From a virus, in the IMG/VR virus record IMGVR_UViG_3300045988_029143, positions 1 through 11,001 of that record: DNA of 11,001 nucleotides. One strand, given 5' to 3'. The notes beneath the pieces were generated by a model that made no database searches, was not told the origin of the DNA, and worked only from the letters and a program-made list of their open reading frames with translations. Positions 1 through 11,001 of this stretch are shown one piece after another. The first letter of the stretch is position 1; each line of letters begins with the position of its first letter. Made by a program: the position numbers and the translations under genes.

Positions 1-101
1 AAATATGCACAACGCCCCCATTTTTAACATTTCCCAACACATTTTTAACAGTAGCCAACATAGTTTGGCACGCTTTTTGCATAGGCCGTGCCAAACCTCC
101 A
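1..101. repeat. Left inverted terminal repeat (101 bp)
   Basis: Manual alignment: positions 1-101 equal the reverse complement of 10901-11001 except position 20 (A, versus C expected from G at 10982). Identity stops abruptly at 102. The repeat begins AAATATGCAC. Confidence 0.95.
66..81 (+). promoter_or_regulatory. sigma-54-like -24/-12 motif copy 1, inside the left ITR and pointing inward; alternatively an origin protein-binding site
   Basis: TGGCAC(66-71) GCTTT TTGCA(77-81) is an exact match to TGGCAC-N5-TTGCW. It is embedded in the 9-bp inverted repeat TTTGGCACG(64-72)-N14-CGTGCCAAA(87-95). Confidence 0.35.
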
Positions 102-107
102 CGAAGA

Positions 108-143
108 AATAAAAAAATAGCGTACCAAAAGAGTTGGCACGCT
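108..143 (-). terminator. Intrinsic terminator after the last (tail) gene
   Basis: The minus-strand RNA forms AGCGUGCCAA-CUCUU-UUGGUACGCU, a 10-bp stem with one G-U pair, followed by AUUUUUUUAUUU. It lies 15 nt downstream of the stop codon at 158-160. Confidence 0.7.
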
Positions 144-150
144 ATTTGCA
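135..150 (+). promoter_or_regulatory. sigma-54-like -24/-12 motif copy 2 (subterminal, outside the ITR, pointing inward)
   Basis: TGGCAC(135-140) GCTAT TTGCA(146-150) is an exact consensus match. The extended motif TTGGCACGCTATTTGCATAGG is shared with copy 1. It overlaps the terminator hairpin of the last gene and would fire antisense to it. Confidence 0.3.
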
Positions 151-157
151 TAGGTCG

Positions 158-1981
158 TTAATCTATAAAAACACCGCTCTGCAATAAATTAACAATTTCG
201 GTGTACTCGCTTTTCGGCACGTTGTCTATATCGTTATTTACAATCTCATCAAATTTGTAAAAACCCTTTGCACATTGCGAAAGTACAACTTTTTTATAGT
301 CATTGCCGCGTACATAGTTATACTCATTGGTGAAGTAATTCAGCCGCGCAAATGGCTCAAGGCCATATAAATTTTGTGCGTCCCACCTATCACTACCTAT
401 TACGGACGTGTCATAAGTAGTGTAAAGTATATCCGTATTAGGTTGTACGTTATGTAATTGTATGGGTAAATCGTTATTATCCAACAATTTACAAACCCCG
501 TCACCACTAATTACATTAATATCGTACACCAATTTTACAGATTTACCGACATAGTCAGAAGACAAACTAACGATACCAACGAACGGCAAAAATACCTCAA
601 TAAGCATATGTTTGTCAAGCGTTGTGTTATCTTTACGCGGTATTGTTATGCTGCCAAAATCAAGCGTTATTATATCCTTTTCGGGTAAATCTGCGTTTAT
701 CTCGGTGTCATAGTTACCGCATTTTATTCGGTCAGTGCCTTTTGTAGGTATGTGTGTATAAATACGCTTAATTCGGTTAACGTATTCGCTCAAATCTTGT
801 TCGTACGTAATAAATGTGCCGCTTTCAGTGAAGTACCTCTTTTTGCTAAAGGCTTCGAGGTTATCAAGCGTAACTACATACACATTGATAGCACCATAAT
901 TTTTAATACTTGGCTGCACCTCCACTTTCGCCCCTCCACGAAATTCGATGTACTCAGTTTTGGGACATTCGGCCGCAATATCAAGTGTAACGTTACCATG
1001 TTTGCCGTCTTCGCTAATCGTGAAACGTTTGTATTGTACACCTCCGAACTCGTCCGTATATCTTATTTCGGGTGGGTCTGTCTCGCTTGTAAACTTACTA
1101 CCCTCATTTGCTTGTATTGTAACGTTTACTTTGTCGGCCGCGGTGTAGTAGGTGGGTATATTTTCGGCCGTACAATTATACAAAGTATTTTTAACGGGTA
1201 TAGCCTTAATATAAGTACCATTAATAACCACGGACACAGAAGTATCTACATTTGTTAATGAGATATTTGCGGTGTCGCTGCTCTGTATGGTCATTGCATC
1301 AGTATGTGAAACACCGCCTGTATCTGTGTATGTAACGTTTGCCGCGGTTATAACATAGCCTCTTTTTGTACCCTTTAGTGTTACGTTGAAAGTACCATTA
1401 TCGTACGTATATGTGGCCGTTGTATCTGCTATGTTATTTGTTATGGTAATCGTTGGTGTACTCTCCGCAACCTCCCCGTTTAATGTAAAAGCACTATTTT
1501 TTGCGGCATCCTCTATGGTAAAAGTAGCCTTGCTTTTGTCCGTACTTATTACCCCGTCAACGCTTGACGTACCCCCGAAACTATCAATATAAACACATTT
1601 AGGTGCTGTGTTAAACTGATGCCCCGTATCAGCGGTAACTACAATGGTATGTACGCCACCGCTTACACTATATGTATAAGTAGTATTAGTTATATTATTT
1701 GTTATCGTTGGTTCTGCGGGGGCGTCGGGGTCGGCCTTAGTAGCCCCCGTTAAACGTATATTTGTGCCACTAACACCGCTAAAAGTACACGTTTTTAGGT
1801 CGGTAGATACTTTGCCCTTTATGCTGCTGCTCCCGAAATCATCATCAAAACGCGCTCGCGGTGTTGTCGCTGTATCAAACAAAAAACCCGTGTCCGCGGT
1901 ACTAACAATATTATAACCCCCTACACTCTCCGTGTATGTGAATGTAGTGTGTGGGATTTGGTTTGTTATTATATCTGCCAT
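158..1981 (-). CDS. Tail protein: four N-terminal tandem beta-rich repeats (about 88 aa each) fused to a phi29 gp9 tail-knob-like C-terminal region
   Basis: 607-aa ORF with an ATG start. Repeats begin ITNQIPHTTFTYT, ITNNITNTTYTYS and ITNNIADTTATYTY, sharing TADTG and DxFGG features. The C-terminal segments LPFVGIVSLSSDYVGKSVKLVY and NDIDNVPKSEYTEIVNLLQSGVFID resemble phi29 gp9 [22 protein letters not shown] and GDINNNDLQEIRTIFDNGITLW (from memory). Confidence 0.75.
   Translation of the reverse strand: MADIITNQIPHTTFTYTESVGGYNIVSTADTGFLFDTATTPRARFDDDFGSSSIKGKVSTDLKTCTFSGVSGTNIRLTGATKADPDAPAEPTITNNITNTTYTYSVSGGVHTIVVTADTGHQFNTAPKCVYIDSFGGTSSVDGVISTDKSKATFTIEDAAKNSAFTLNGEVAESTPTITITNNIADTTATYTYDNGTFNVTLKGTKRGYVITAANVTYTDTGGVSHTDAMTIQSSDTANISLTNVDTSVSVVINGTYIKAIPVKNTLYNCTAENIPTYYTAADKVNVTIQANEGSKFTSETDPPEIRYTDEFGGVQYKRFTISEDGKHGNVTLDIAAECPKTEYIEFRGGAKVEVQPSIKNYGAINVYVVTLDNLEAFSKKRYFTESGTFITYEQDLSEYVNRIKRIYTHIPTKGTDRIKCGNYDTEINADLPEKDIITLDFGSITIPRKDNTTLDKHMLIEVFLPFVGIVSLSSDYVGKSVKLVYDINVISGDGVCKLLDNNDLPIQLHNVQPNTDILYTTYDTSVIGSDRWDAQNLYGLEPFARLNYFTNEYNYVRGNDYKKVVLSQCAKGFYKFDEIVNNDIDNVPKSEYTEIVNLLQSGVFID
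917..1972 (-). repeat. Protein-level tandem repeats (4 units, aa 4-355 of the tail protein), probably Ig-like or adhesin-type modules
   Basis: Units 1 and 2 align along their whole length by eye. Units 3 and 4 are more diverged but keep the ITNN..TT.TY start and the YTD.(F)GG core. Confidence 0.7.
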
Positions 1982-1982
1982 A

Positions 1983-2423
1983 CTATTTATTACCTTTAAG
2001 TGTTACCATTATTATACTACCCTCTTTGTCAAATAGTTGTGAATTGGGAAAGTGCAAAATATCAGTTTTAGGGAAAACATTAAACACGTTACTATTTACT
2101 GACAAATTGCGGTTAGGGTTGTCGCTCTCCACTATTAACGCGGTGCTTTGCAAAATAACATCTTTGTAAGTCTGTAGTACATCAAGCGACAAAGTAAGTA
2201 AATACGTATTACCACCTATGTACCTAACGTTGTCAACAAAGTAATATTTTTGGAAATCCTCAATGTACACGTAATTAAACCCGTACATATTAGGTGGCAT
2301 TTGTATTTTTAGCGTTGGATTATGTACATTAAGTTCGGGGCGCAAAGCAACGTTAAGCGTGCCTAACGGGGTAAGTGCTTTGTTTATCGTGTTAGGTTGC
2401 CCCTTATAGTTATATATTATCAT
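1983..2423 (-). CDS. Tail knob N-terminal domain homolog (phi29 gp9 N-terminal-like), encoded as a separate 146-aa ORF
   Basis: FNYVYIEDFQKYYFVDNVRYIGGNTYLLTLSLDVLQTYKDVILQSTALIVES aligns with phi29 gp9 [57 protein letters not shown] (from memory). The TAG stop is followed one nucleotide later by the ATG of the next ORF. Confidence 0.7.
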   Translation of the reverse strand: MIIYNYKGQPNTINKALTPLGTLNVALRPELNVHNPTLKIQMPPNMYGFNYVYIEDFQKYYFVDNVRYIGGNTYLLTLSLDVLQTYKDVILQSTALIVESDNPNRNLSVNSNVFNVFPKTDILHFPNSQLFDKEGSIIMVTLKGNK

Positions 2424-2429
2424 AGTAGT

Positions 2430-2462
2430 AAAATAAAAAAGGTGGTGTTTATTACACCACCT
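2430..2462 (-). terminator. Intrinsic terminator after the major capsid gene
   Basis: The minus-strand RNA forms AGGUGGUGU-AAUAA-ACACCACCU, a perfect 9-bp stem (2440-2448 with 2454-2462), followed by UUUUUUAUUUU. It lies 21 nt after the MCP stop. Confidence 0.8.
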
Positions 2463-2482
2463 TGAGCCACAATATTAACTAA

Positions 2483-3655
2483 TTAAGCAACAAAGAAAAC
2501 TACAAAATTTTCGTTAGTATCGTTGAAGTAGCCAGCGTCAAACTTATAGTAGTTATTAAAGAACTCGGCCTTTGCGTTATAGTTAGTAGTTACGCGGCGG
2601 TTGAGGTTGCACACACCCAACGCATCGCGGTCAAACATAACACCTAAAACACCGCTAATGTCAACGGTTTTGCCGCCCGTCTCCTTAATGGTAATGTGTG
2701 CCGTACTTGCAAAATCGTACTTTGCACCGCTACCCTGCCAAAATGGTACACTTTCGGCATTCGGCAAAAGCACCTGTTCTTTGTTGTATGTATCGCTGTA
2801 CAAGTAAGCACGGGCCGCCTTTTCGAAGTCAGAGAGTAACACAACGTGTAAGTTTTCGCGAGGTGTAAAGCGTGGCTTACCTCCAATGTTAAATACACTT
2901 GAAATGCTCGCGAGTCTATCCGTGTACAAACCAATTGTGTAACTTGCAAACTTGATGAAATCGGGGTCTGTAAGTGCCTTTTCAGCGGTCAAAGTAGTGC
3001 TTTTGTTATCGTTGTACAACTTAAGCAAGTTAACGCAACGGGCGGTGCTACCTGTTTTGTAGTCTGTGCTACCATCACCACCAAAGGCCGCTCTGTCAGC
3101 TATCAAAGTTTGCGCTATCATGTTATTGATAGTACGCATAATTAACGCGTCCGTCTTAATGGTAATAGACTTTTCCACCGCGTTGTAAATCATAGACAAA
3201 AACGCGTTAAGTTGCTCAGCGTTAGAAAAACTATCTTTTACTTGACGCTCAGTGATAGACACGGGGACTTCGAAAGTTACGCGAGAATTGAAGAACTTTG
3301 CCGTAACTGTTGGCTTGTGAAATACATCTTGTGAGTATACCTCGCCGTCCGTTAGCTCCCAACTCTTATTCTCTTCGGCTTCGGGTAGGTCTGCGCTAAT
3401 CTTTTCGAGTACAGAGCCAAACTCCCAAGCGTCCATAAGTACAGAGGGAATTTTGCCTGCGTACGGGCGATTTACAAAAACCACCTTACCAATATGGTTA
3501 ACAAGTGATTTTACGTAATTGTCGACCGCGTTTTGGTTAAAGACCTCATTACCGAGGTCTACCAACCCCGTTAAATCATCGCTAACAAGTTCGGAGTTAC
3601 CTAAAACCTCTTTTGACACTGAATTTATCAGCGTGTAAATTTGTTTTACTTCCAT
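2483..3655 (-). CDS. Major capsid protein, phi29 gp8-like (HK97 fold expected)
   Basis: 390 aa. YVKSLVNHIGKVVF matches phi29 FITSLVDRIGLVVI, AFLSMIYNAVEKS matches SFVSSIINAIYNS, and the C-terminal NNYYKF...VVFFVA matches WNYYYHV...AVAFV (phi29 sequence from memory). It has its own upstream promoter-like motif and a downstream terminator. Confidence 0.88.
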   Translation of the reverse strand: MEVKQIYTLINSVSKEVLGNSELVSDDLTGLVDLGNEVFNQNAVDNYVKSLVNHIGKVVFVNRPYAGKIPSVLMDAWEFGSVLEKISADLPEAEENKSWELTDGEVYSQDVFHKPTVTAKFFNSRVTFEVPVSITERQVKDSFSNAEQLNAFLSMIYNAVEKSITIKTDALIMRTINNMIAQTLIADRAAFGGDGSTDYKTGSTARCVNLLKLYNDNKSTTLTAEKALTDPDFIKFASYTIGLYTDRLASISSVFNIGGKPRFTPRENLHVVLLSDFEKAARAYLYSDTYNKEQVLLPNAESVPFWQGSGAKYDFASTAHITIKETGGKTVDISGVLGVMFDRDALGVCNLNRRVTTNYNAKAEFFNNYYKFDAGYFNDTNENFVVFFVA

Positions 3656-3656
3656 T

Positions 3657-4226
3657 TTAATATATTAATTTGGTTATGTCATTTATAATTGCAAAAATAA
3701 TGCTTTTGCGCCAATTTTGCAAACTAAATTCAATTTCTTTTGTTAGTTCGTCCGTTGGTGACTTCGAGCCAAGACCTACAACCTTTTGTGTACTCGTGAC
3801 ATTGTTAGTACGTGTATTGTCGTACGTTGTACTATCTTTGTCATACTCCACAAAATCCGTTGCGTTGTATGGCTTGTTAGACGCTACATTTGTATTGTTA
3901 TTGTTGGCGTTTTCGGTGGTCTTATCCTCCCTCGTGGTTTGCTGCTGTACAGGGTTAAGTACATCATATTGGGCATTGTAGGCACTCGCCACGCGTACCC
4001 AATTACTAACACTCAACGCAATTATATTTTTAATGTATTCGTTTGCGTTGGTTTGTGTTATGGTGTTAATACACTCGCGCTCGCTGTAGTTGAGTAGTAC
4101 AAGCGTATCAAGTCCCACACTATCCATGTCACCAAATATTGCAGCGTATTCTGTGGGATAGTTAGGCTTAAATACCGCTGTAAATAGGCCGTGTTTAGGG
4201 TCGGGGTAAAGGTCAATTATCTTCAT
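3657..4226 (-). CDS. Hypothetical virion morphogenesis protein (scaffold or head-tail adaptor, by position only)
   Basis: 189-aa ORF between portal and capsid genes. It is the only gene with a strong SD (AAAGGAGGAAGAAA before the ATG). The centre is N/T/Q-rich and low complexity. I recognise no motif. Confidence 0.8.
   Translation of the reverse strand: MKIIDLYPDPKHGLFTAVFKPNYPTEYAAIFGDMDSVGLDTLVLLNYSERECINTITQTNANEYIKNIIALSVSNWVRVASAYNAQYDVLNPVQQQTTREDKTTENANNNNTNVASNKPYNATDFVEYDKDSTTYDNTRTNNVTSTQKVVGLGSKSPTDELTKEIEFSLQNWRKSIIFAIINDITKLIY
3692..3723 (-). promoter_or_regulatory. Bacteroides-type promoter (-33 TTTG, -7 TAnnTTTG) upstream of the capsid gene
   Basis: The minus strand reads TTTG(3723-3720)-20 nt-TATTTTTG(3699-3692). 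The -7 box ends 36 nt upstream of the MCP ATG at 3655. The motif lies inside the 3' end of the preceding gene. Confidence 0.5.
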
Positions 4227-4242
4227 TTTCTTCCTCCTTTTC

Positions 4243-5235
4243 TTAGTCCGTTTCGTTTTCCGTTTCGGTCTCCGTTTCGGTCTCTGTTTCGGTTTCCGTT
4301 ACTTCCTTTTCTTCCTGTTCAGCAACGCTTTCGCCAATAGTAGAAGTATTATCTTTATTATCTTCATTTTCTGTTTCTGTTTTGGTTTCGTCCTTGCGTA
4401 TCGCCCAACTACTTGCAAGTTCCACACTAATTCCAGTGCCAAACATAGCGTTTATTTTTTCCACCGCCTTTTTGCGCTCTTGTAGCATATTGTCTACATA
4501 CGGGTTGAGGGCATCTACATTCATTTGCACCTCACTTGTATTCAGTCGCTCGCGCTTTAGGTTGTAGTTGGCGTTTAGGCCAATTTCGTTAAACGCAGAC
4601 GCTTTGAAATATTGAAGTAATTCAATGAGTTGCGTTATTTGGTTCGCGCTCTGCGTGGAAATGCTTTGCAAGTTCACGCCCTTAAAAAATGCGTTTTCGC
4701 CTATTACGGAAAAATCTCCTTGCAAAATCTTTGTTATAAAATCGTCCGCGCTTTGTTTGGTCTTGTCATCGCTCGCACTTATTAACATGGTGATACGAGA
4801 GAGTACAGAGCAAGTATTGAGCGACAAAAGCGTATCACTACACAAAACGCCATATTTGCCGAAAATCGGCAAAAGGCTATTTGCGCCACTATCATTTTTA
4901 ATCAATACCCCCTCCACGTCTATTTTGTACGACTTGTTTAGGTTTAGGTATGGGTTACTTACAATGTATTCGGTCGCTTCGTTGTACGCGTTGGGGACAC
5001 CTCCAAGGCCGCCAGTAAAAGCATATATTTTGCCGTCTACCTCAGTTACAAAAACATTGCCGTTGGTCTGTAGTAGGTTTTCCAAATTGTTTTGGGGTAA
5101 CGTTTCGGGCAGACCTTTGTACTCAAACATTGCTTGTGTTATGGCTAACATTTTGCGTATGTAACCTTTTACACTTTTGTCTTTATTTTTTATTTCCTCT
5201 TGATACTTCAAGTACAAGTTATCTTTCTTTGCCAT
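4243..5235 (-). CDS. Portal / upper collar connector protein, phi29 gp10-like
   Basis: 330 aa. [25 protein letters not shown] matches phi29 [48 protein letters not shown] matches [21 protein letters not shown], and [10 protein letters not shown] matches ACEKINELYG (from memory). The C-terminal tail is acidic. Confidence 0.88.
   Translation of the reverse strand: [330 protein letters not shown]
4247..4306 (-). repeat. 12-nt tandem repeat (about 5 units) encoding the (Thr-Glu)n tail of the portal
   Basis: Plus-strand units are tccgtttcgttt, tccgtttcggtc, tccgtttcggtc, tctgtttcggtt and tccgttacttcc. They translate on the minus strand to [20 protein letters not shown]. Confidence 0.9.
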
Positions 5236-5425
5236 TTGTCAATGTTTTTATAAGTGTGCTTAACTCGCTCAAAACTCGGGTGTTATCCTCCAAAGTAGTG
5301 CGTAAATTGTCGGTTTCTTCCTTGTGCTGCTCATCGTGTTTTGTCATGTAGTAAAATACAATTAAGCACATCGCAATCGGAAAGCCTACGTTTGAAATCA
5401 TTTGTGTAACTTGTGTAATATCCAT
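5219..5425 (-). CDS. Small single-pass membrane protein (YvrJ-like; holin candidate)
   Basis: 68 aa. The N-terminal hydrophobic segment SNVGFPIAMCLIVFYY is followed by a charged helical tail. The NVGFPI motif recalls the YvrJ small-protein family (from memory). It overlaps the portal gene by 17 nt. Confidence 0.65.
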   Translation of the reverse strand: MDITQVTQMISNVGFPIAMCLIVFYYMTKHDEQHKEETDNLRTTLEDNTRVLSELSTLIKTLTNGKER

Positions 5426-5449
5426 TTTGTAAGGTGTTATTAATTACTG

Positions 5450-5481
5450 CAAATATACGAAAGTTATTTTATACTTACAAT
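5450..5481 (-). promoter_or_regulatory. Possible Bacteroides-type promoter for the structural gene block (good -7 box, imperfect -33)
   Basis: The minus strand reads ATTG(5481-5478)-20 nt-TATATTTG(5457-5450). The -7 box ends 24 nt upstream of the ATG at 5425, in the only intergenic gap between the ATPase and the late genes. Confidence 0.3.
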
Positions 5482-6594
5482 GTTGGTCTTTGCCGAAGTC
5501 ATTAAATAATTTCGCACAATTTCGCCAACCTCATTATTTTGGTAAAATACTTTGTCCGTGGCAAAATACCGCGCTACTTGACTCTCTAAATACGTCGCAC
5601 TACTTATTAATTTGCGCTTGTAGTTTGGTTTCCCGTTCATCGTTAGGCTGTATATTAGTGAGTTTTCGGGGTCTTTTATTGGGGTAGTCTTCATGTGAAT
5701 GTATGTAAAATTTTCGCCCCCGTGCTGTATTATGTTGCCTTGCAAAATATATTCGTTGAATACAATGTAATACACAAAAAGCACGTCATTTGGTTTGTAC
5801 TTCGTTGGCAAATGTGGATAGGCGGCCATTTCCCATTTGCCGCCCGTTATCATTTCCAAATTTTGATTATCAAAACAAAAGTACTTATTACTTGCTTTTT
5901 GTTTAACAATGGTACTGCAATACTCCACCGCTACCACCGCGCCATGTTGCCCAAACTTGTATATGTCAATAGTGCCTTGCTCCATGTTAGTTACTTGCTT
6001 TAGGCCCATTTCCGTGAAGTAAGGGCAAAACTTATTTATTGTGTTGCCCAACATAAATACTTTTACGTTGTCGCGCTGTCGTATTATGGTACTTAAAAGG
6101 TTCATATACAACATGAACTCATCGGGTAGGTAGTACCTACGAGTTAAAAACTCATCAAAAACGATTGTTGTAACGTTGGGGTAACTGCTACTTTTTTCAT
6201 GCTCTTGTTCTGACAGACAAAAGCCATAGCAAAAGGGTGTAGTTTGCGGTACGTACTTCTTTTTTTCGGGGTCATATTTTGCAAGATACCATTTGCCACC
6301 GATATAAAATACCGCGTTAAACTCCCCCTTTGTTATTTCTTCTATGTACCCGTTGGCCACGTGGTTAGTAAATAGATTTTCTGCACGTTTGCCGCGTAAA
6401 TCCTCGCGCCACCTACGTATATAGGCCATTTGTTCGCCCGTCTGTAAATAGCGTTTAATTCCATACGCTAAAGTAGCGTATGTTTTGCCATTCGAACGCT
6501 CGCCAAATATTATGTTATAATCAGCCTTTTTGTTTAGGATATTGGCGAGGGAGTAAAATTTTATCGTTTCTTTCTTATTTGTTTCTTTCTTCAT
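5464..6594 (-). CDS. DNA packaging (encapsidation) ATPase, phi29 gp16-like
   Basis: 376 aa. Walker A is GERSNGKT (nt 6481-6504) and Walker B-like is TTIVFDEF. Size and single-subunit organisation are typical of protein-primed podophage packaging ATPases. Confidence 0.8.
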   Translation of the reverse strand: MKKETNKKETIKFYSLANILNKKADYNIIFGERSNGKTYATLAYGIKRYLQTGEQMAYIRRWREDLRGKRAENLFTNHVANGYIEEITKGEFNAVFYIGGKWYLAKYDPEKKKYVPQTTPFCYGFCLSEQEHEKSSSYPNVTTIVFDEFLTRRYYLPDEFMLYMNLLSTIIRQRDNVKVFMLGNTINKFCPYFTEMGLKQVTNMEQGTIDIYKFGQHGAVVAVEYCSTIVKQKASNKYFCFDNQNLEMITGGKWEMAAYPHLPTKYKPNDVLFVYYIVFNEYILQGNIIQHGGENFTYIHMKTTPIKDPENSLIYSLTMNGKPNYKRKLISSATYLESQVARYFATDKVFYQNNEVGEIVRNYLMTSAKTNIVSIK

Positions 6595-6597
6595 TGT

Positions 6598-8784
6598 TCA
6601 ATCTTTTAGTTTTATGCCTTTTAGATAATTTAGATACATCACACTTAAAGATAAATTATAACTTGTTGGCTCTAAGTGTACACCCGTATTCTCTGCAAAT
6701 GTACACTTTTTACCCGTGTAGTCGGTTACTTCACCCGTTATTTTGTAGTCTATGTATGTATGTATGTTTTTGCCCGTGGCTTCACACGGAAATTCGAGAT
6801 AATTGGTAAAGGCGTTAAATATGTTATCACCATACTTTTTAACAAGGTAGGGTATTGCAGCCTTTTTGTTTACACCGCTTATTGTTAGGCTGTACTCATA
6901 ACTTTTGCCGCCTACGTTTAGGGCGTTTTCTTCCTGCACAATGTACCTCTTTGCGCCCAACGTCTTAAAACGTTTGTACGTCCCTTCATAGTCCCAAACG
7001 CCTAAAGTTTTAGTAACTCCCTTAATGGTTTCGGGTTCGCATTTGGCAAAGTCTATGTTATGATGTTTACACGCGGCCTTTAGTTTGTTATATACTACAT
7101 TGTTGTACATATCAAAATACCGCTTGTGCGCTGCTGCGTTTCTTAGTTTAATGCTGTCAGTATCGCTGTATATGTAATCTTGCTTTGCTTCGTAGATTGC
7201 GGTAAATAAATTGCGCCTTGCATACGCGGTAACAAAAACACCCCACGGATAAAACAAAAAGCGGTTTTTACTTTCGTTGTACTTCTGTAACATCTCGGCC
7301 TTTTCGCTGTCTGTCAATGTATTCTCGTCCCATTTGCCATTATATACAAATTCATCACGCAAAGGGTTAGTAACACACATACCATAGCACGAGTTTAGCA
7401 TTTCCTTGCTATTTAGGTACTCCACTTCCTTTCCTTGCACGCCTTTTAATTTGGTTTTGTTTTCGTACAAATCTAAGATTGTACGTACAAAATCAGTTGG
7501 CAAATAGTCGGCCTTATAGCAATACATTGCACCGATACGGACACCGCCCCACGTGTAAAATTTGCGTATTATGTTGTAGTCTATGTTTGTTATTGTCGTG
7601 GCTACTTTTGCAGCACAAACAAGCCGGCCGTTATTCTCCACGTGGTCTATCTTGACATAGCATTTGCTTACACTTATAGGGTTATCCTGCAACTCTTTAG
7701 CAAAGATGTTGGCAAATTCAATGTCAAATATGCAAAGGTACTTACTTATGTAGTATTCAAATTCTTGCATATTTCGGGGGTGCACTCGTACCCCCTTAGA
7801 CATAGGGAATTTTTCAGACACCATAACATACGGGTAACTGCTCGTAAAATCGTAACTTGCAACGTCTTCACAAATTTCGTCTATGTGGTTTGCGTTGCCG
7901 TGAGTAAATCCACCGCTAAAAGCCCTTTGCAGCATATTAAATTCATGCAACCCCGAAATAGTTAGCGAGTGGATTAAATTAATACACTCCCAATTACGAG
8001 CGGTTTTGCCGTTTACCTTTTTACTTAACATTGCTTTGCGGCAATGTTTACGCACGTACCCCGTTTTGGTTAGAGGCAAACGCGTTATTAACTTGTTTTG
8101 CTCTAATTGCTCTTGTATGTAGTTCATAACCACTTTTATATCATTCGCGCAGTAAAGCAACTCTTTCGGGGTTAGTTCGGTCTGCACGTGTCGTATTAGG
8201 GTATAGTCTAAATCTCCAACCATTTTTGCACACTTGTATGTTTGTAGTTGCTCGCCTAACTTTGCAAGGTTGTAGCCGCTTAACAAGTAGCTGCATCTAA
8301 ATTCTATGCCTAACGTTGTGGTTGCATATAGGGGCTTGCGCAAATCAATGCTAAAAACTTTCTCCCATTCAAACAGAGTACGCAAAAACTGAAATTCGTA
8401 GGATAAATTGTGTATATATACGATTAGTTTTTTGTTATTGGATAACTCCAATGTTTGTGCTATCGTGTTACACATTGTTACAAACTCGTCCCATGTACGG
8501 CCTACTATTACGTACCCATTTATACCAAATTGCCACACGTACATAATAGCACATTTTTCCATTTTTACACCTATCTTGTTGTATTGTTCGTAAGTGTATG
8601 TGTTGCCGTCTTCGTCTCGGTAAAAACTACTTACCTCAATGTCAAAGGCGCAAGGGACGTTGTAAAATTTACACCCCTTATTGTTGCCTATTACGTTTTT
8701 GTCATTTACGGCCAACTCCAAAATTTTTTGTATGTCGGTGGTCTTATATATACCGCTGTGCTGTTCATATTGCACCTTTTTCAT
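6598..8784 (-). CDS. Family B DNA polymerase, protein-primed type
   Basis: 728 aa. Exo I is FDIEV (D48, E50). Exo II is HNLSYEF. Exo III is YCANDIKV. Motif A is YDFTSSYP. Motif B is KEMLNSCYG. A TPR2-like insert lies before GVFVTAYARR. Motif C is YSDTDS (nt 7153-7170, verified by back-translation). KxY is AKRY. Confidence 0.95.
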   Translation of the reverse strand: MKKVQYEQHSGIYKTTDIQKILELAVNDKNVIGNNKGCKFYNVPCAFDIEVSSFYRDEDGNTYTYEQYNKIGVKMEKCAIMYVWQFGINGYVIVGRTWDEFVTMCNTIAQTLELSNNKKLIVYIHNLSYEFQFLRTLFEWEKVFSIDLRKPLYATTTLGIEFRCSYLLSGYNLAKLGEQLQTYKCAKMVGDLDYTLIRHVQTELTPKELLYCANDIKVVMNYIQEQLEQNKLITRLPLTKTGYVRKHCRKAMLSKKVNGKTARNWECINLIHSLTISGLHEFNMLQRAFSGGFTHGNANHIDEICEDVASYDFTSSYPYVMVSEKFPMSKGVRVHPRNMQEFEYYISKYLCIFDIEFANIFAKELQDNPISVSKCYVKIDHVENNGRLVCAAKVATTITNIDYNIIRKFYTWGGVRIGAMYCYKADYLPTDFVRTILDLYENKTKLKGVQGKEVEYLNSKEMLNSCYGMCVTNPLRDEFVYNGKWDENTLTDSEKAEMLQKYNESKNRFLFYPWGVFVTAYARRNLFTAIYEAKQDYIYSDTDSIKLRNAAAHKRYFDMYNNVVYNKLKAACKHHNIDFAKCEPETIKGVTKTLGVWDYEGTYKRFKTLGAKRYIVQEENALNVGGKSYEYSLTISGVNKKAAIPYLVKKYGDNIFNAFTNYLEFPCEATGKNIHTYIDYKITGEVTDYTGKKCTFAENTGVHLEPTSYNLSLSVMYLNYLKGIKLKD

Positions 8785-9419
8785 AGTCCGAAATTATTAA
8801 ACACGTCTAATATGCTCTGTATCTCGCTTTCTACTTCGTTAGTTAGTTTGTTAGCTTCACTTTCGATATTGCTATCTATCGCGTTTTGTAGGCTTACGGC
8901 TTCACTTTCAATTTGTTCGCTCGCGTCTCGTGCGCTTTGCTCCAAATCGCCCGTGAAGTCTTTATACTTCATGAGGTATTTTTCAACAAAATCGCTATCG
9001 CTTAAACTTGTTAGCTTTTCGTTTAACTTATCGGCCATTAAATTAAATTCTTTGTCAGTAAGGCCGTAGGCGGTTTTTAGGTGTTCGTTGTATGTACGCG
9101 TGCCTTGGGCGGTACTCGTAGGCTGACGCAAAAAAGACACGGCTTTCGCGTACTCTGTTTTAATTTCGTCCCAACTTTGGCCGCTCACAGAAAATTTGCT
9201 ATATCCTTTTATATCTCCTTTGTTTAAGGCTGTTACCGCAGGACTTAATAAACCTTTGTCTTCAATGTTTTGTATGCGTCTATTTGCTTGTTGGAATACG
9301 CGCCTTACTTCCTTTCTTAGTTCGGGACTGCTCTCAACGCTTTGTATAATATCTTGGCGTAATTCGGTGCGCTGCGTTGCTGTAAATACGCTTTGCTTGT
9401 ATCCTATCTTGTTAGGCAT
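8781..9419 (-). CDS. Candidate terminal protein (replication primer)
   Basis: 212-aa ORF immediately upstream of the polymerase gene, overlapping it by ATGA (8781-8784). This TP-then-pol synteny occurs in phi29, PRD1 and Bam35. The N-terminus is basic and the C-terminus is an acidic coiled region. I can verify no sequence motif. Confidence 0.5.
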   Translation of the reverse strand: MPNKIGYKQSVFTATQRTELRQDIIQSVESSPELRKEVRRVFQQANRRIQNIEDKGLLSPAVTALNKGDIKGYSKFSVSGQSWDEIKTEYAKAVSFLRQPTSTAQGTRTYNEHLKTAYGLTDKEFNLMADKLNEKLTSLSDSDFVEKYLMKYKDFTGDLEQSARDASEQIESEAVSLQNAIDSNIESEANKLTNEVESEIQSILDVFNNFGL

Positions 9420-9425
9420 AGCTGT

Positions 9426-9463
9426 AAAATTAAAATAGGTAGGTAGTTATATGCTACCTACCT
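9426..9463 (-). terminator. Intrinsic terminator or attenuator between the early small genes and the TP-polymerase genes
   Basis: A perfect 10-bp stem AGGTAGGTAG(9437-9446)/CTACCTACCT(9454-9463) has a 7-nt loop. On the minus strand it is followed by AUUUUAAUUUU, immediately before the ATG at 9419. Confidence 0.65.
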
Positions 9464-9477
9464 AATTGTGTTACTTG

Positions 9478-9831
9478 TTAGATGTCCTTAAAACTAATAG
9501 TGTGGCAGTTGCGGCCGTGGCTCTCGTACTTTCGTACTACAAAACCTACTTTGCCTTTTTTGATGTCTTCCACTGCGTTAGCATTGTTTACAATGTCATT
9601 AAACACCTTAGTTAGGTATATAGGCATATCAATGCGCTTTTTAACGTCAGACATCACCACCACGACTTTAACGCCAAATTTGCCGCGTGTGAAGTAGAAC
9701 CCATTTAACGCGTGTACCGCGTCGGGGTTAGTGTTGTATAACTCTTTAAGGCTTGTAAATTCGTAGCCTTTCAAATCAAACTTAAAGGGGTTTTCATTGC
9801 CCTTATTGTACTTTTCTGCAAAACTTGTCAT
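9478..9831 (-). CDS. Hypothetical early protein (candidate DNA-binding protein or SSB, by size and position only)
   Basis: 117-aa ORF with an ATG start. It is predicted beta-rich (GKFGVKVVVVM, GKVGFVVRKY). It occupies the position held by the SSB/DBP genes upstream of TP in phi29. Confidence 0.75.
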   Translation of the reverse strand: MTSFAEKYNKGNENPFKFDLKGYEFTSLKELYNTNPDAVHALNGFYFTRGKFGVKVVVVMSDVKKRIDMPIYLTKVFNDIVNNANAVEDIKKGKVGFVVRKYESHGRNCHTISFKDI

Positions 9832-9842
9832 AACTCAAAGCG

Positions 9843-10013
9843 TTAATTGTTAGCTGTATGTTCGTTGCCTAATGTAATCAGGAAATTTCTAAACTTCGAG
9901 ATTTTTAGAAGTGTGCGAGTACTCGCGTTAACTTCCTTGGTGGTCATAAGTTGGCCGAGGGCGTTTGTAGCGGTAAATATCGCTTCATCAAACGCATTTC
10001 TTTCTTCGTTCAT
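9843..10013 (-). CDS. Hypothetical 56-aa early protein (absent from the supplied ORF track)
   Basis: Hand translation gives MNEERNAFDEAIFTATNALGQLMTTKEVNASTRTLLKISKFRNFLITLGNEHTANN. Its ATG (10013-10011) overlaps the TGA (10012-10010) of the upstream gene as ATGA. It fills an otherwise unexplained 178-nt gap. The plus-strand ORF 9847..10047 is its shadow. Confidence 0.6.
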   Translation of the reverse strand: MNEERNAFDEAIFTATNALGQLMTTKEVNASTRTLLKISKFRNFLITLGNEHTANN

Positions 10014-10219
10014 TTCTTTTGGTATTTTAGTAGTGTGTTGTGATTGATGTACGTTGTGTCGGTTGTGACAATGGTAGCCTTTCCGTTAACGTCTGTTTGC
10101 TTGTACATTGAGCAACTTTGCAGGGCCATGCATAGGCCGTAAAGCACAGAGACCAAAACAAGCACGTAAGAGATACAAAAAAGTAATGTACCCACGCTTT
10201 TTAAAATTTTCTTTTTCAT
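10010..10219 (-). CDS. Small secreted, membrane or lipoprotein-like early protein
   Basis: 69 aa. A basic N-terminus (MKKKILK) precedes a hydrophobic segment, then ALQSC, a loose lipobox-like site before Cys. The C-terminus is polar. Confidence 0.65.
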   Translation of the reverse strand: MKKKILKSVGTLLFCISYVLVLVSVLYGLCMALQSCSMYKQTDVNGKATIVTTDTTYINHNTLLKYQKK

Positions 10220-10234
10220 TTTAATTGTTGGTTA

Positions 10235-10279
10235 ATGTTCCACGTGAAACAATTTTGTTTTGTTCCACGTGAAACAATT
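10235..10279. promoter_or_regulatory. Two copies of an operator-like near-palindrome (TGTTCCACGTGAAACAATT), 25 bp apart
   Basis: A perfect 19-bp direct repeat occurs at 10236-10254 and 10261-10279. Each contains TTGTTC-CACGTG-AAACAA (18-bp palindrome, with one mismatched pair in copy 2 and two in copy 1). It lies in the 63-nt gap between two early genes. Confidence 0.5.
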
Positions 10280-10282
10280 ATT

Positions 10283-10567
10283 TCACTTATTGTTATCTTG
10301 TGTGTATTCTCTAAACTTGTCGAGCAAACCATTTTCAAGGATAAACATATACGCTTCGTTTTTTAGGTTCATTTCAACACGTTTCGAGTTTTCGAGTTCT
10401 TGAATGTCTTTACCTATGTTCTGAGCAAATGCCGCTAAGTTGCTAAGAGTGGCGCAAACGCTTCTGAGTAGTTCAGAGTCGGTGCGCTTTGCTTCAAAAT
10501 GCACGTTTGTGCAAGTAGTTTGCAAGATTGTTGCAAGTTCGGTGTAAAGTTGAGACTTCGTTGCCAT
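10283..10567 (-). CDS. Hypothetical early protein (94 aa, helical)
   Basis: The track ORF 10283..10591 starts at a GTG inside a GC-rich hairpin. The first ATG (10567) gives MATKSQLYTEL... and I prefer it. No recognisable motif. Confidence 0.7.
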   Translation of the reverse strand: MATKSQLYTELATILQTTCTNVHFEAKRTDSELLRSVCATLSNLAAFAQNIGKDIQELENSKRVEMNLKNEAYMFILENGLLDKFREYTQDNNK

Positions 10568-10584
10568 TGTATTTTTGTTTGGTT

Positions 10585-10605
10585 GCCCCACTGGTTAGGT
10601 GGGGC
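10585..10605. other. GC-rich stem-loop GCCCCAC-N7-GTGGGGC just upstream of the first sizeable gene
   Basis: Perfect 7-bp stem with a 7-nt loop. On the minus strand it is followed by an A-rich tract, so it is not a classical terminator. On the plus strand it is followed by GTTACCTTTT. Confidence 0.5.
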
Positions 10606-10613
10606 GTTACCTT

Positions 10614-10721
10614 TTAAAGGTTAGCTAACGTTTTGCCAAGTGTGCGCAAATTGTTTTTAGCTATTCGCTTTGCTGTTTCGCTCTTTGCGTTTTTCAAATC
10701 CTCAAAATTATCATTGAGCAT
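10614..10721 (-). CDS. Possible 35-aa micro-ORF (could instead be part of a non-coding RNA)
   Basis: Hand translation gives MLNDNFEDLKNAKSETAKRIAKNNLRTLGKTLANL. It has an ATG start and TAA stop, lies downstream of the promoter-like motif at 10768-10799, and has no SD. It is too short to judge coding potential. Confidence 0.25.
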   Translation of the reverse strand: MLNDNFEDLKNAKSETAKRIAKNNLRTLGKTLANL

Positions 10722-10767
10722 TTTTAAGCATTTCTAAATCTTTCATTTGTTATTTATTTTGATATTG

Positions 10768-10799
10768 CAAAGGTAGTAACTTTGTGTACTTAATGCAAA
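10768..10799 (-). promoter_or_regulatory. Bacteroides-type promoter (-33 TTTG, -7 TAnnTTTG) at the right end, facing the early genes
   Basis: The minus strand reads TTTG(10799-10796)-20 nt-TACCTTTG(10775-10768). It sits in an AT-rich non-coding region upstream of all genes. Confidence 0.5.
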
Positions 10800-10847
10800 T
10801 TTTTAGTATTAAAATATCTTAAAAGATTATTTTTTGTTTCGTTGCTA

Positions 10848-10863
10848 TGCGAATAGCGTGCCA
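10848..10863 (-). promoter_or_regulatory. sigma-54-like -24/-12 motif copy 3 (subterminal at the right end, pointing inward, same direction as the genes)
   Basis: The minus strand reads TGGCAC GCTAT TCGCA. The GG and GC dinucleotides keep correct spacing, with one mismatch in the -12 box. Its distance from the right end (139 nt) is similar to that of copy 2 from the left end (135 nt). Confidence 0.3.
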
Positions 10864-10900
10864 AAAATCGCTTTTCGTAGGTGCTTTTTTCTTGTGATTT

Positions 10901-11001
10901 TGGAGGTTTGGCACGGCCTATGCAAAAAGCGTGCCAAACTATGTTGGCTACTGTTAAAAATGTGTTGGGAAATGTTAAAAAGGGGGGCGTTGTGCATATT
11001 T
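10901..11001. repeat. Right inverted terminal repeat (101 bp)
   Basis: Reverse complement of 1-101 with 100/101 identity. The single difference lies in a C5A versus C6 run. Confidence 0.95.
10921..10936 (-). promoter_or_regulatory. sigma-54-like -24/-12 motif copy 4, inside the right ITR and pointing inward toward the genes
   Basis: The minus strand reads TGGCACGCTTTTTGCA, the mirror of copy 1. It is oriented with all minus-strand genes. Confidence 0.35.

Follow-up and report, generated by a model that had tools for sequence, protein, structure and literature searches.

The DNA analysed here, positions 1 to 11,001 of the IMG/VR virus record IMGVR_UViG_3300045988_029143 (hereafter the window, meaning this whole 11,001-nt stretch), had been described in an initial annotation, made without database searches, as a complete and unusually small phi29-like genome with unidirectional gene order. 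Our analysis indicates that it is very probably the complete genome of an uncultivated phi29-like podophage, which belongs to a large gut clade sister to the Astrithrvirus-like phages and most likely infects a member of the Bacteroidota. Gene models, built from long and non-overlapping open reading frames (ORFs), gave 13 genes on the minus strand and none on the plus strand of the window, with a coverage of ~94% that includes a spurious 50-amino-acid (aa) ORF in the repeat. Read on the minus strand from position 11001 down, the products measure 102, 69, 56, 117, 212, 728 (polymerase), 376 (ATPase), 68, 330 (connector), 189, 390 (capsid protein), 146 and 607 aa, which agrees with the one-strand order initially described. 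The genes and the inverted terminal repeats (ITRs) that enclose them are as follows:

1..131, no strand: ITR at the tail-gene end, with core nt 1-101 and physical terminus 5'-AAATATGCAC, a terminus common to relatives
158..1981, minus strand: predicted distal tail-knob protein, 607 aa, with four immunoglobulin (Ig)-like domains (~residues 1-355) and a C-terminal knob domain
1983..2423, minus strand: predicted proximal tail-knob protein, 146 aa, like the N-terminal part of phi29 gp9; phrog_2248
2483..3655, minus strand: phi29-type major capsid protein (MCP), 390 aa; PF25622 2e-54
3657..4226, minus strand: lower-collar (gp11-like) candidate, 189 aa, adjoining the connector as gp11 adjoins gp10 in phi29
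4243..5235, minus strand: connector, upper collar gp10 type, 330 aa; PF05352 2e-15; phrog_2038 3e-37
5219..5425, minus strand: membrane protein, holin-like candidate, 68 aa, with one transmembrane helix, a coiled coil and a GFPI..C motif
5464..6594, minus strand: gp16-type DNA packaging ATPase, 376 aa; PF05894 1e-22; phrog_2150 1e-34
6598..8784, minus strand: predicted protein-primed family B DNA polymerase, 728 aa; PF03175 8e-12; phrog_1907 2e-72
8781..9419, minus strand: terminal-protein candidate, 212 aa, with a 4-nt overlap with the polymerase start
9478..9831, minus strand: early protein, 117 aa, in a position that would suit a candidate DNA-binding or single-stranded DNA-binding protein (SSB)
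9843..10013, minus strand: early protein, 56 aa, conserved in 68/72 relatives
10010..10219, minus strand: small lipoprotein candidate, 69 aa, with signal peptide and lipobox LQSC
10283..10591, minus strand: first early gene, helical, 102 aa from GTG or 94 aa from an ATG at 10567, with a sister-clade 117-aa homologue
10871..11001, no strand: ITR at the early-gene end, found by repeat finder, direct reading and gapped alignment

Four hallmark families were found above threshold in Pfam and PHROGs, namely DNA_pol_B_2, Podovirus_Gp16, Phage_connector (GP10) and Phi29_MCP, with the ATPase, connector and capsid matches (PF05894, PF05352 and PF25622) all exceeding their gathering scores. The sole PDB sequence match of the polymerase was the phi29 DNA polymerase (E 1e-12), and on its sequence this protein is assigned to the protein-primed type of family B. 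Together, these four families and the single PDB match identify the window as phi29-like, in accordance with the initial annotation.

The arms of the ITRs (1-131 and 10871-11001, 90% complementary according to the repeat finder) begin at base 1 and finish at base 11001, i.e., exactly at the window ends, as had been claimed. Direct reading of nt 1-101 against the reverse complement of the other end revealed a single mismatch, at nt 20, with divergence beyond, whilst gapped alignment stretched the similarity to 157/153 nt at 87.9%. The terminal sequence AAATATGCA begins or ends independent IMG/VR contigs as it does the window, the terminus of the sister gut clade is AAAGGTACGC, and many contigs start or stop at one of the two. 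In addition, an Illumina adapter tail (...GCTCTTCCGATCT) abuts the first A of the terminus at both ends of one relative (contig L010) and at one end of two others (L016 and L030), and the terminus of a fourth (L006) carries the adapter remnant TCT. An adapter abutting the terminus is what a ligation library would give at a true blunt DNA end, and the genome is therefore linear, with ITRs at its physical ends, a feature by which phi29-like podophages are recognised. As a side observation, untrimmed Illumina adapters persist in these four public IMG/VR uncultivated virus genomes. The nearest relatives fall in the same length class and are collinear over ~96% of the window at 87% nt identity. Since relatives are bounded by the canonical terminus at both ends, the window is a complete linear genome of 11,001 bp and of ordinary size; the completeness initially proposed is thus upheld by the ITRs at the ends, the shared termini, the adapters on the termini of relatives and the collinear relatives of the same length.

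At the nucleotide level the window had no match to phage records (megablast, INPHARED), and an exact-sequence look-up of its capsid protein found no record. The capsid protein is, over its full length, 55-59% identical to those of very small isolated phages of Gram-negative bacteria:

Shigella vB_SHGBLB0004: 11,151 bp, isolate with related capsid protein
Salmonella S.Kent 1-2-1: 11,162 bp, isolate with related capsid protein
Pectobacterium DU_PP_III: 11,504 bp, isolate with related capsid protein
Salmonella astrithr, assan and Astrid: 11,569-11,713 bp (astrithr 11,569), isolates with related capsid protein
Enterobacter Entb_47: 11,593 bp, isolate with related capsid protein
Acinetobacter Phanie (Aci01-2-Phanie): 11,885 bp, isolate with related capsid protein

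Identity to the astrithr group amounts to ~50% for the ATPase and 41-46% for the polymerase, and the terminal-protein candidate and the 68-aa and 146-aa proteins are also detectable there, in unchanged order. Against Astrithrvirus astrithr itself the values are 57% (MCP) and 46% (polymerase), and on genus-level nucleotide similarity the window is placed outside the genus Astrithrvirus of the International Committee on Taxonomy of Viruses. A capsid-protein scan of IMG/VR retrieved 343 relatives, the best 80 of which are mostly whole contigs of 10.6-12 kb, and this search, which had been suggested as a way to place the lineage, positions the window within a gut clade sister to the Astrithrvirus-like phages. 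The close subclade shows MCP identities of 83-96% and includes the contigs with 87% nt identity, the larger sister gut clade reaches ~76-79%, and the names of the samples indicate gut, faecal and rumen origins. The gut clade is present in public metagenome collections and is apparently undescribed.

Genomes that carry the canonical terminus at both ends, and are thus complete, range from 10,545 bp (L050) to 11,944 bp (L020), and four of them fall below the window in length (L050, 10,545; L018, 10,750; L007, 10,904; L049, 10,918). Against the shortest isolate genome found, the window is smaller by ~150 bp, and it lies in the mid-to-low range of its own clade, for which 11,001 bp is an ordinary length and no outlier. 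The earlier suggestion that it sits at or below the known lower limit did not survive comparison with isolates of 11,151-11,885 bp and gut relatives of 10,545-11,944 bp; phi29 and Mycoplasma phage P1, which had served as size comparators, are not relevant here because the true relatives are the Astrithrvirus-like phages and the gut clade. The smallest tailed-phage isolates have been quoted at 11.6 kb (bioRxiv 10.1101/2025.06.18.659913). One shorter record, that of Vibrio phage K58 g2 (OZ195715.1, 10,390 bp; L003), starts in the terminase gene and ends within an open polymerase gene, and since it is permuted or incomplete it does not represent a smaller complete genome. Small phi29-like phages of Gram-negative bacteria, which define the lower size limit of tailed phages, have been recognised only recently, and with the window and its several hundred relatives it becomes clear that gut samples commonly contain complete genomes of 10.5-11 kb bounded by ITRs. 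Such genomes will be overlooked by surveys that judge completeness from direct terminal repeats.

Among named systems, the Astrithrvirus-like phages (astrithr/Astrid/assan, vB_SHGBLB0004, DU_PP_III and Entb_47) are likewise linear, at 11.1-11.7 kb, and have in common with the window the core order of terminal-protein candidate (~200 aa), polymerase, gp16 ATPase, small membrane protein (~65 aa), connector, ~185-aa protein, capsid protein, 146-aa proximal knob and distal knob. A terminal inverted repeat of 60 nt was measured in Shigella phage vB_SHGBLB0004, and the ends of astrithr match over ~20 nt. A 2024 review describes phi29-related phages of Gram-negative bacteria that measure 11-14 kb and have a lower collar of reduced length and a tail knob divided between two genes; the distal knob protein carries extra Ig-like domains, and no fibre or spike genes were found (PMC11476376, section 2.6). 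In size, core order, short collar protein and two-gene Ig knob the window agrees with the Astrithrvirus-like cluster of that review (cluster 23), but it has neither the CHAP lysin that follows the knob in those phages nor their 2-4 opposite-strand early genes at the far end. Acinetobacter phage Phanie, with an MCP identity of 55.6%, has 171-nt ITRs, the same gene order and a split Ig-domain knob, and differs in a CHAP+CW_7 lysin and two opposite-strand genes that the window does not have.

More distant comparisons fit less well. The terminal sequence of phi29 (Salasmaviridae) begins AAA, like that of the window, whereas phi29 has a 19.3-kb genome, 6-bp ITRs and divergent early and late operons as opposed to 11,001 bp, long ITRs and a single coding strand; its packaging RNA (pRNA), scaffold, head fibre, appendages, gp13, holin, endolysin and single-gene knob are functions not found in the window. 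Mycoplasma phage P1 (Delislevirus P1) shares a small linear genome (11,660 bp), long ITRs (350 bp) and a family B polymerase, but its genes form two convergent blocks (six on the plus and five on the minus strand) in place of a unidirectional order, and it was absent among the capsid-protein matches. Gut contigs of the type of IMGVR_UViG_3300045988_035343 (L007), at 10.9-11.5 kb and unannotated, have the genes, strand and termini of the window.

The host assignment draws on translation and transcription signals. A Shine-Dalgarno motif was found upstream of only one of the 13 window genes (8%), and of 4-7% of genes in the gut clades, versus 65% in the enterobacterial and Acinetobacter relatives. 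Just inside the left (early-gene) ITR lies a promoter candidate:

10768..10799, minus strand: Bacteroidota-type promoter candidate TTTG-N20-TACCTTTG, both elements of which are invariant in close relatives

Its two elements fit the −33/−7 consensus of Bacteroidota promoters. Matches to TTTG-N17-22-TAnnTTTG occur 2.4 times per genome versus 0.4 times in shuffled sequences, with 43% of them outside ORF interiors, and close relatives vary between the left promoter and the first gene as well as in the first gene itself. The near absence of Shine-Dalgarno sites, together with the Bacteroidota-type promoters, makes a member of the Bacteroidota the most likely host, in which case the clade would probably extend the small phi29-like group to Bacteroidota hosts. 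Relatives of ~11 kb in genome collections (L088-L125) are binned with taxa as unrelated as Prevotella, Melainabacteria, Treponema, Christensenellaceae and Methanobrevibacter. A host assignment from these collections was rejected, as the contigs are mis-binned into metagenome-assembled genomes (MAGs) of unrelated phyla, which makes MAG-based host calls unreliable for this phage group.

The gp16-type ATPase would package the DNA through the gp10-type connector into the phi29-type capsid, as their family memberships suggest, and the short tail would be made up of a small lower-collar protein of 189 aa and a knob encoded by two genes, with the 146-aa protein proximal and the 607-aa protein distal. 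The profile of the 146-aa protein had as its top PDB matches the N-termini of three tail knobs (Andhra 8egs_Y, C1 4eo2 and phi29 gp9 5fb4), and the protein aligns to residues 91-170 of phi29 gp9 (hhalign E 4.9e-5). For the 607-aa protein, the AlphaFold model (mean pLDDT, the predicted local distance difference test score, 73.7) has four beta-sandwich domains predicted with confidence, after which the C-terminal region is of low confidence, and its Foldseek matches are confined to tandem Ig/fibronectin type III adhesin-like structures, with no lysin fold. Its C-terminal 300 residues resemble the C-terminal part of the astrithr-group gp10 (hhalign probability 98.3%, E 1.2e-14). A direct gp9 match was sought for the 607-aa profile against PDB and phi29 and was not found, so that the link to knob proteins passes solely through astrithr gp10. 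On these alignments and models the 146-aa and 607-aa proteins are assigned to a split tail knob of the kind described previously (PMC11476376). Three direct DNA repeats with 261-264 nt spacing (1408-1972) in the tail gene correspond to tandem Ig-like domains of ~87 aa, and this tandem repetition indicates that duplication of domains has enlarged the distal knob protein. Among the relatives listed it measures between 522 and 880 aa, and the protein collection contains more than 1,000 homologues, nearly all of them from contigs no longer than 12 kb.

The 189-aa protein is likely the lower collar, judging from alignment and modelling. It aligns weakly to astrithr gp07 (hhalign E 4.5e-5), and its AlphaFold2 model is a helical bundle with a long beta hairpin, the general shape of a collar subunit. 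Weak full-length Foldseek matches in BFVD include a "Collar protein" of phage SOCP and a "Lower collar protein" of phage IME195, while searches of PDB by sequence, of PHROG and of PDB by Foldseek gave no match. The initial annotation had noted no recognisable lower collar, appendage or head-fibre gene; family searches of the window proteins likewise found no homologue of the gp12 appendage or the gp8.5 head fibre, whereas the statement on the collar is probably wrong in view of this 189-aa candidate. The connector ends in an acidic, low-complexity (TE)n tail of variable length (~4243-4300, minus strand), and the connectors of relatives measure 296-425 aa. The 68-aa membrane protein is kept at the same position in the astrithr group.

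Replication would proceed by protein priming at both ends, with the 212-aa protein, encoded upstream of the polymerase and translationally coupled to it, as the primer, and sliding-back, as it occurs in phi29, would be possible at the terminal 5'-AAA repeat. BLASTP matched the 212-aa protein to astrithr gp02, Phanie gp02 and the Shigella homologue (E 7e-7 to 4e-10), and the gp02 family of astrithr-type phages has been named as the counterpart of p3, the terminal protein (PMC11476376). Its profile gave only coiled-coil noise against PDB and PHROG. The 117-aa early protein was tested as a homologue of phi29 p5 or of the astrithr SSB-like protein and no relation was detected. The lipobox of the 69-aa lipoprotein candidate is conserved, and so is the GKATIVTTDTT in its mature part.

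Several results weigh against reading the window as a complete phi29-like phage of the Bacteroidota. Neither CRISPR (clustered regularly interspaced short palindromic repeats) spacers nor binning supply host evidence. Neither phi29 gp3 nor the terminal-protein PHROG shows detectable similarity to the 212-aa protein, whose candidate label derives from its position and from homology to an annotated family of putative terminal proteins. The lower-collar assignment is weak, the PDB Foldseek search being empty and the best BFVD match having an E of 1.9e-3. A pRNA was not found either: there was no Rfam match at E<=1, and the window holds no conserved noncoding region of sufficient size. The 277-nt left noncoding region was rejected as its location, being unconserved past the promoter in 87%-identical relatives and missing in L087. 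The pRNA is established for the Salasmaviridae and not for the phi29-like group as a whole. Lastly, no endolysin, holin family or receptor-binding protein was identified in the window, and for this reason an autonomous lytic cycle is at most putative.

This last point bears on the alternative that survives best, namely that the phage is helper-dependent like Phanie, building its own capsid and a stub tail and needing the tail, and perhaps the lysis functions, of another phage. Phanie has been shown experimentally to need the tail of a helper myophage (Pourcel 2024, as summarised in PMC11476376), and the same review speculates that other phi29-like phages of Gram-negative bacteria share this strategy. 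The window has the split knob with lateral Ig-like domains seen in Phanie and its relatives and no tail fibre or spike gene, and, unlike Phanie and astrithr, it has no muralytic enzyme. By family and fold searches, such an enzyme or endolysin was absent from the window and from ~71/72 full-length gut relatives, and no CHAP lysin lies 3' of the knob gene, where the tail gene ends at position 158 and adjoins the ITR without any lysin family or fold. The exception is L015, in which an Amidase_2 gene (10537-10941) follows the tail gene in the place where astrithr and Phanie carry their CHAP lysin. On the other hand, no helper is known, astrithr-like phages built with this tail architecture have been deposited as isolates of named hosts (record host fields), and the lack of lysin and receptor-binding genes is a negative result, obtained by sequence and fold searches with small uncharacterised proteins. 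We consider dependence on a helper rather unlikely. A broader version, in which this abundant gut lineage lost its receptor-binding and wall-degrading functions and is either helper-dependent for entry and release or lyses its host without a muralytic enzyme through the 68-aa and 69-aa proteins, strikes us as a tentative idea of similarly low probability. That these two proteins form parts of a lysis or exclusion module is speculation; if true, lysis solely by a 68-aa membrane protein and a 69-aa lipoprotein would be new for tailed phages. The clade presents a minimal tailed-phage set of 13 genes without recognisable lysin, fibre, scaffold or pRNA, which raises questions of lysis, entry, helper use and early transcription. 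The interest of the window, in itself unexceptional, lies in a host that is probably a member of the Bacteroidota, in the lack of lysin and receptor-binding functions, in a possible dependence on a helper and in the sigma-54-like arrays described below.

That the molecule is incomplete or artefactual, either what a deletion left of a larger phi29-like genome or a contig that owes its ITRs to fold-back during assembly, is very improbable and already largely refuted. Artefacts linked to ITRs do occur in related contigs, as in an inverted copy of the tail-gene 3' end (L053:788-1000, minus strand) at the left end of a 12.7-kb contig, which reflects fold-back assembly via the ITR, and in a chimera with truncated secA (L086); long perfect ITRs such as that of L015 could also be assembly-inflated. 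However, fold-back would not give the non-identical arms seen in the window, with one mismatch in the first 101 nt and divergence thereafter, and dozens of independent contigs have the same termini, gene set and length, with adapters adjoining the same terminal sequence in relatives. An origin of the ITR in assembly, raised in the initial annotation as a result that would overturn it, is accordingly not supported, and neither is a deletion, as relatives are collinear at 10.5-12 kb and isolated relatives are likewise 11.1-11.9 kb in length.

A linear phage-plasmid or temperate element in place of a virulent phage is hardly credible: phi29-related phage-plasmids have been reported (PMC11476376) and one 33.9-kb contig (L086; ENA ERZ27272161 k141_156845) links the element to bacterial DNA, but no partition, toxin-antitoxin, integrase or repressor families were found, and the junctions of that contig, with truncated secA joined mid-ITR at one of them and, at the other, unrelated DNA attached precisely to the AAATATGCAC terminus, follow the pattern of a chimera, as which the hint of integration was rejected. 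Matches in bacterial genome collections are free contigs of ~11 kb, none visibly integrated, and the longest contig among the 38 matches listed measures ~14.7 kb.

The one-strand layout represents a small derived rearrangement of one ITR-proximal gene and leaves the genome plan as such unaltered. In astrithr-like phages and in the sister gut clade, 1-4 small opposite-strand genes lie at the far end, reading inward from the right ITR, and these are missing from the subclade of the window. Homology links the first gene of the window (10283-10591) with the gene of 117 aa at the right end of sister-clade genomes (hhalign probability 97.4%, E 9.5e-12), and it is from this homology to a gene at the other end and on the other strand that the unidirectional order is read as derived. 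One terminal gene would have moved from the right to the left end, a plausible route being expansion of the ITR followed by loss of one copy. In L015, the ITR-proximal gene is found in both arms (1-617 and 10973-11589) of a perfect 617-nt ITR. The presence of this gene at opposite ends and on opposite strands in the two gut clades suggests that genes are shuffled between ends as the ITRs lengthen and shorten.

The ITRs and the adjacent DNA also contain inward-pointing boxes of the form TGGCACG-N4-TTGCW, which resemble the −24/−12 consensus of sigma-54 promoters, and three terminator-like hairpins were located between and behind the genes:

66..81, plus strand: sigma-54-like box TGGCACGCTTTTTGCA in the ITR, inward, part of a palindrome at 63-96
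135..150, plus strand: second sigma-54-like box TGGCACGCTATTTGCA, inward; on the minus strand it forms the 3' arm of the hairpin at 115-147
10921..10936, minus strand: sigma-54-like box in the ITR, inward toward the early genes
10848..10863, minus strand: second sigma-54-like box TGGCACGCTATTCGCA, inward, with one mismatch
9436..9464, minus strand: terminator-like hairpin between the early genes and the terminal-protein gene
2439..2463, minus strand: terminator-like hairpin 3' of the capsid gene
115..147, minus strand: terminator-like hairpin 3' of the last (tail) gene

Six matches with at most one mismatch were found versus 0.08 expected, all within 150 nt of the ends, and the boxes show the sequence features of sigma-54 sites (−24 GG and −12 GC, TGGCAC-N5-TTGC, with exact spacing). 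Both gut clades have arrays of 2-4 inward boxes in the first ~250 nt of both ends (L005-L084), typically spaced by ~58 nt and by ~70 nt in the clade of the window, and most copies have a TTTAACA element ~22 nt upstream. The astrithr group has no such boxes, many of the innermost copies read TTGTT in place of TTGC, family searches identified no gene for a sigma-54 activator in the genome, and only ~65 nt of DNA lie upstream of the outermost box. Phage use of sigma-54 has precedent in Pseudomonas phage YuA (PMC10914365). From their sequence the boxes could be sigma-54 promoters, and could equally be operators or auxiliary origin sites. Transcription would be carried out by the host RNA polymerase from the left end through one co-directional train of genes, driven by the candidate Bacteroidota-type promoter, possibly with a contribution from the sigma-54-like boxes, and modulated by the hairpin terminators.

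At the start of this gene train, a GC-rich hairpin of the form GCCCCAC-N7-GTGGGGC (10584-10606) overlaps the GTG of the first ORF and is kept in L007 and L008 despite variable flanks; the true start codon of the first gene may be the ATG at 10567.

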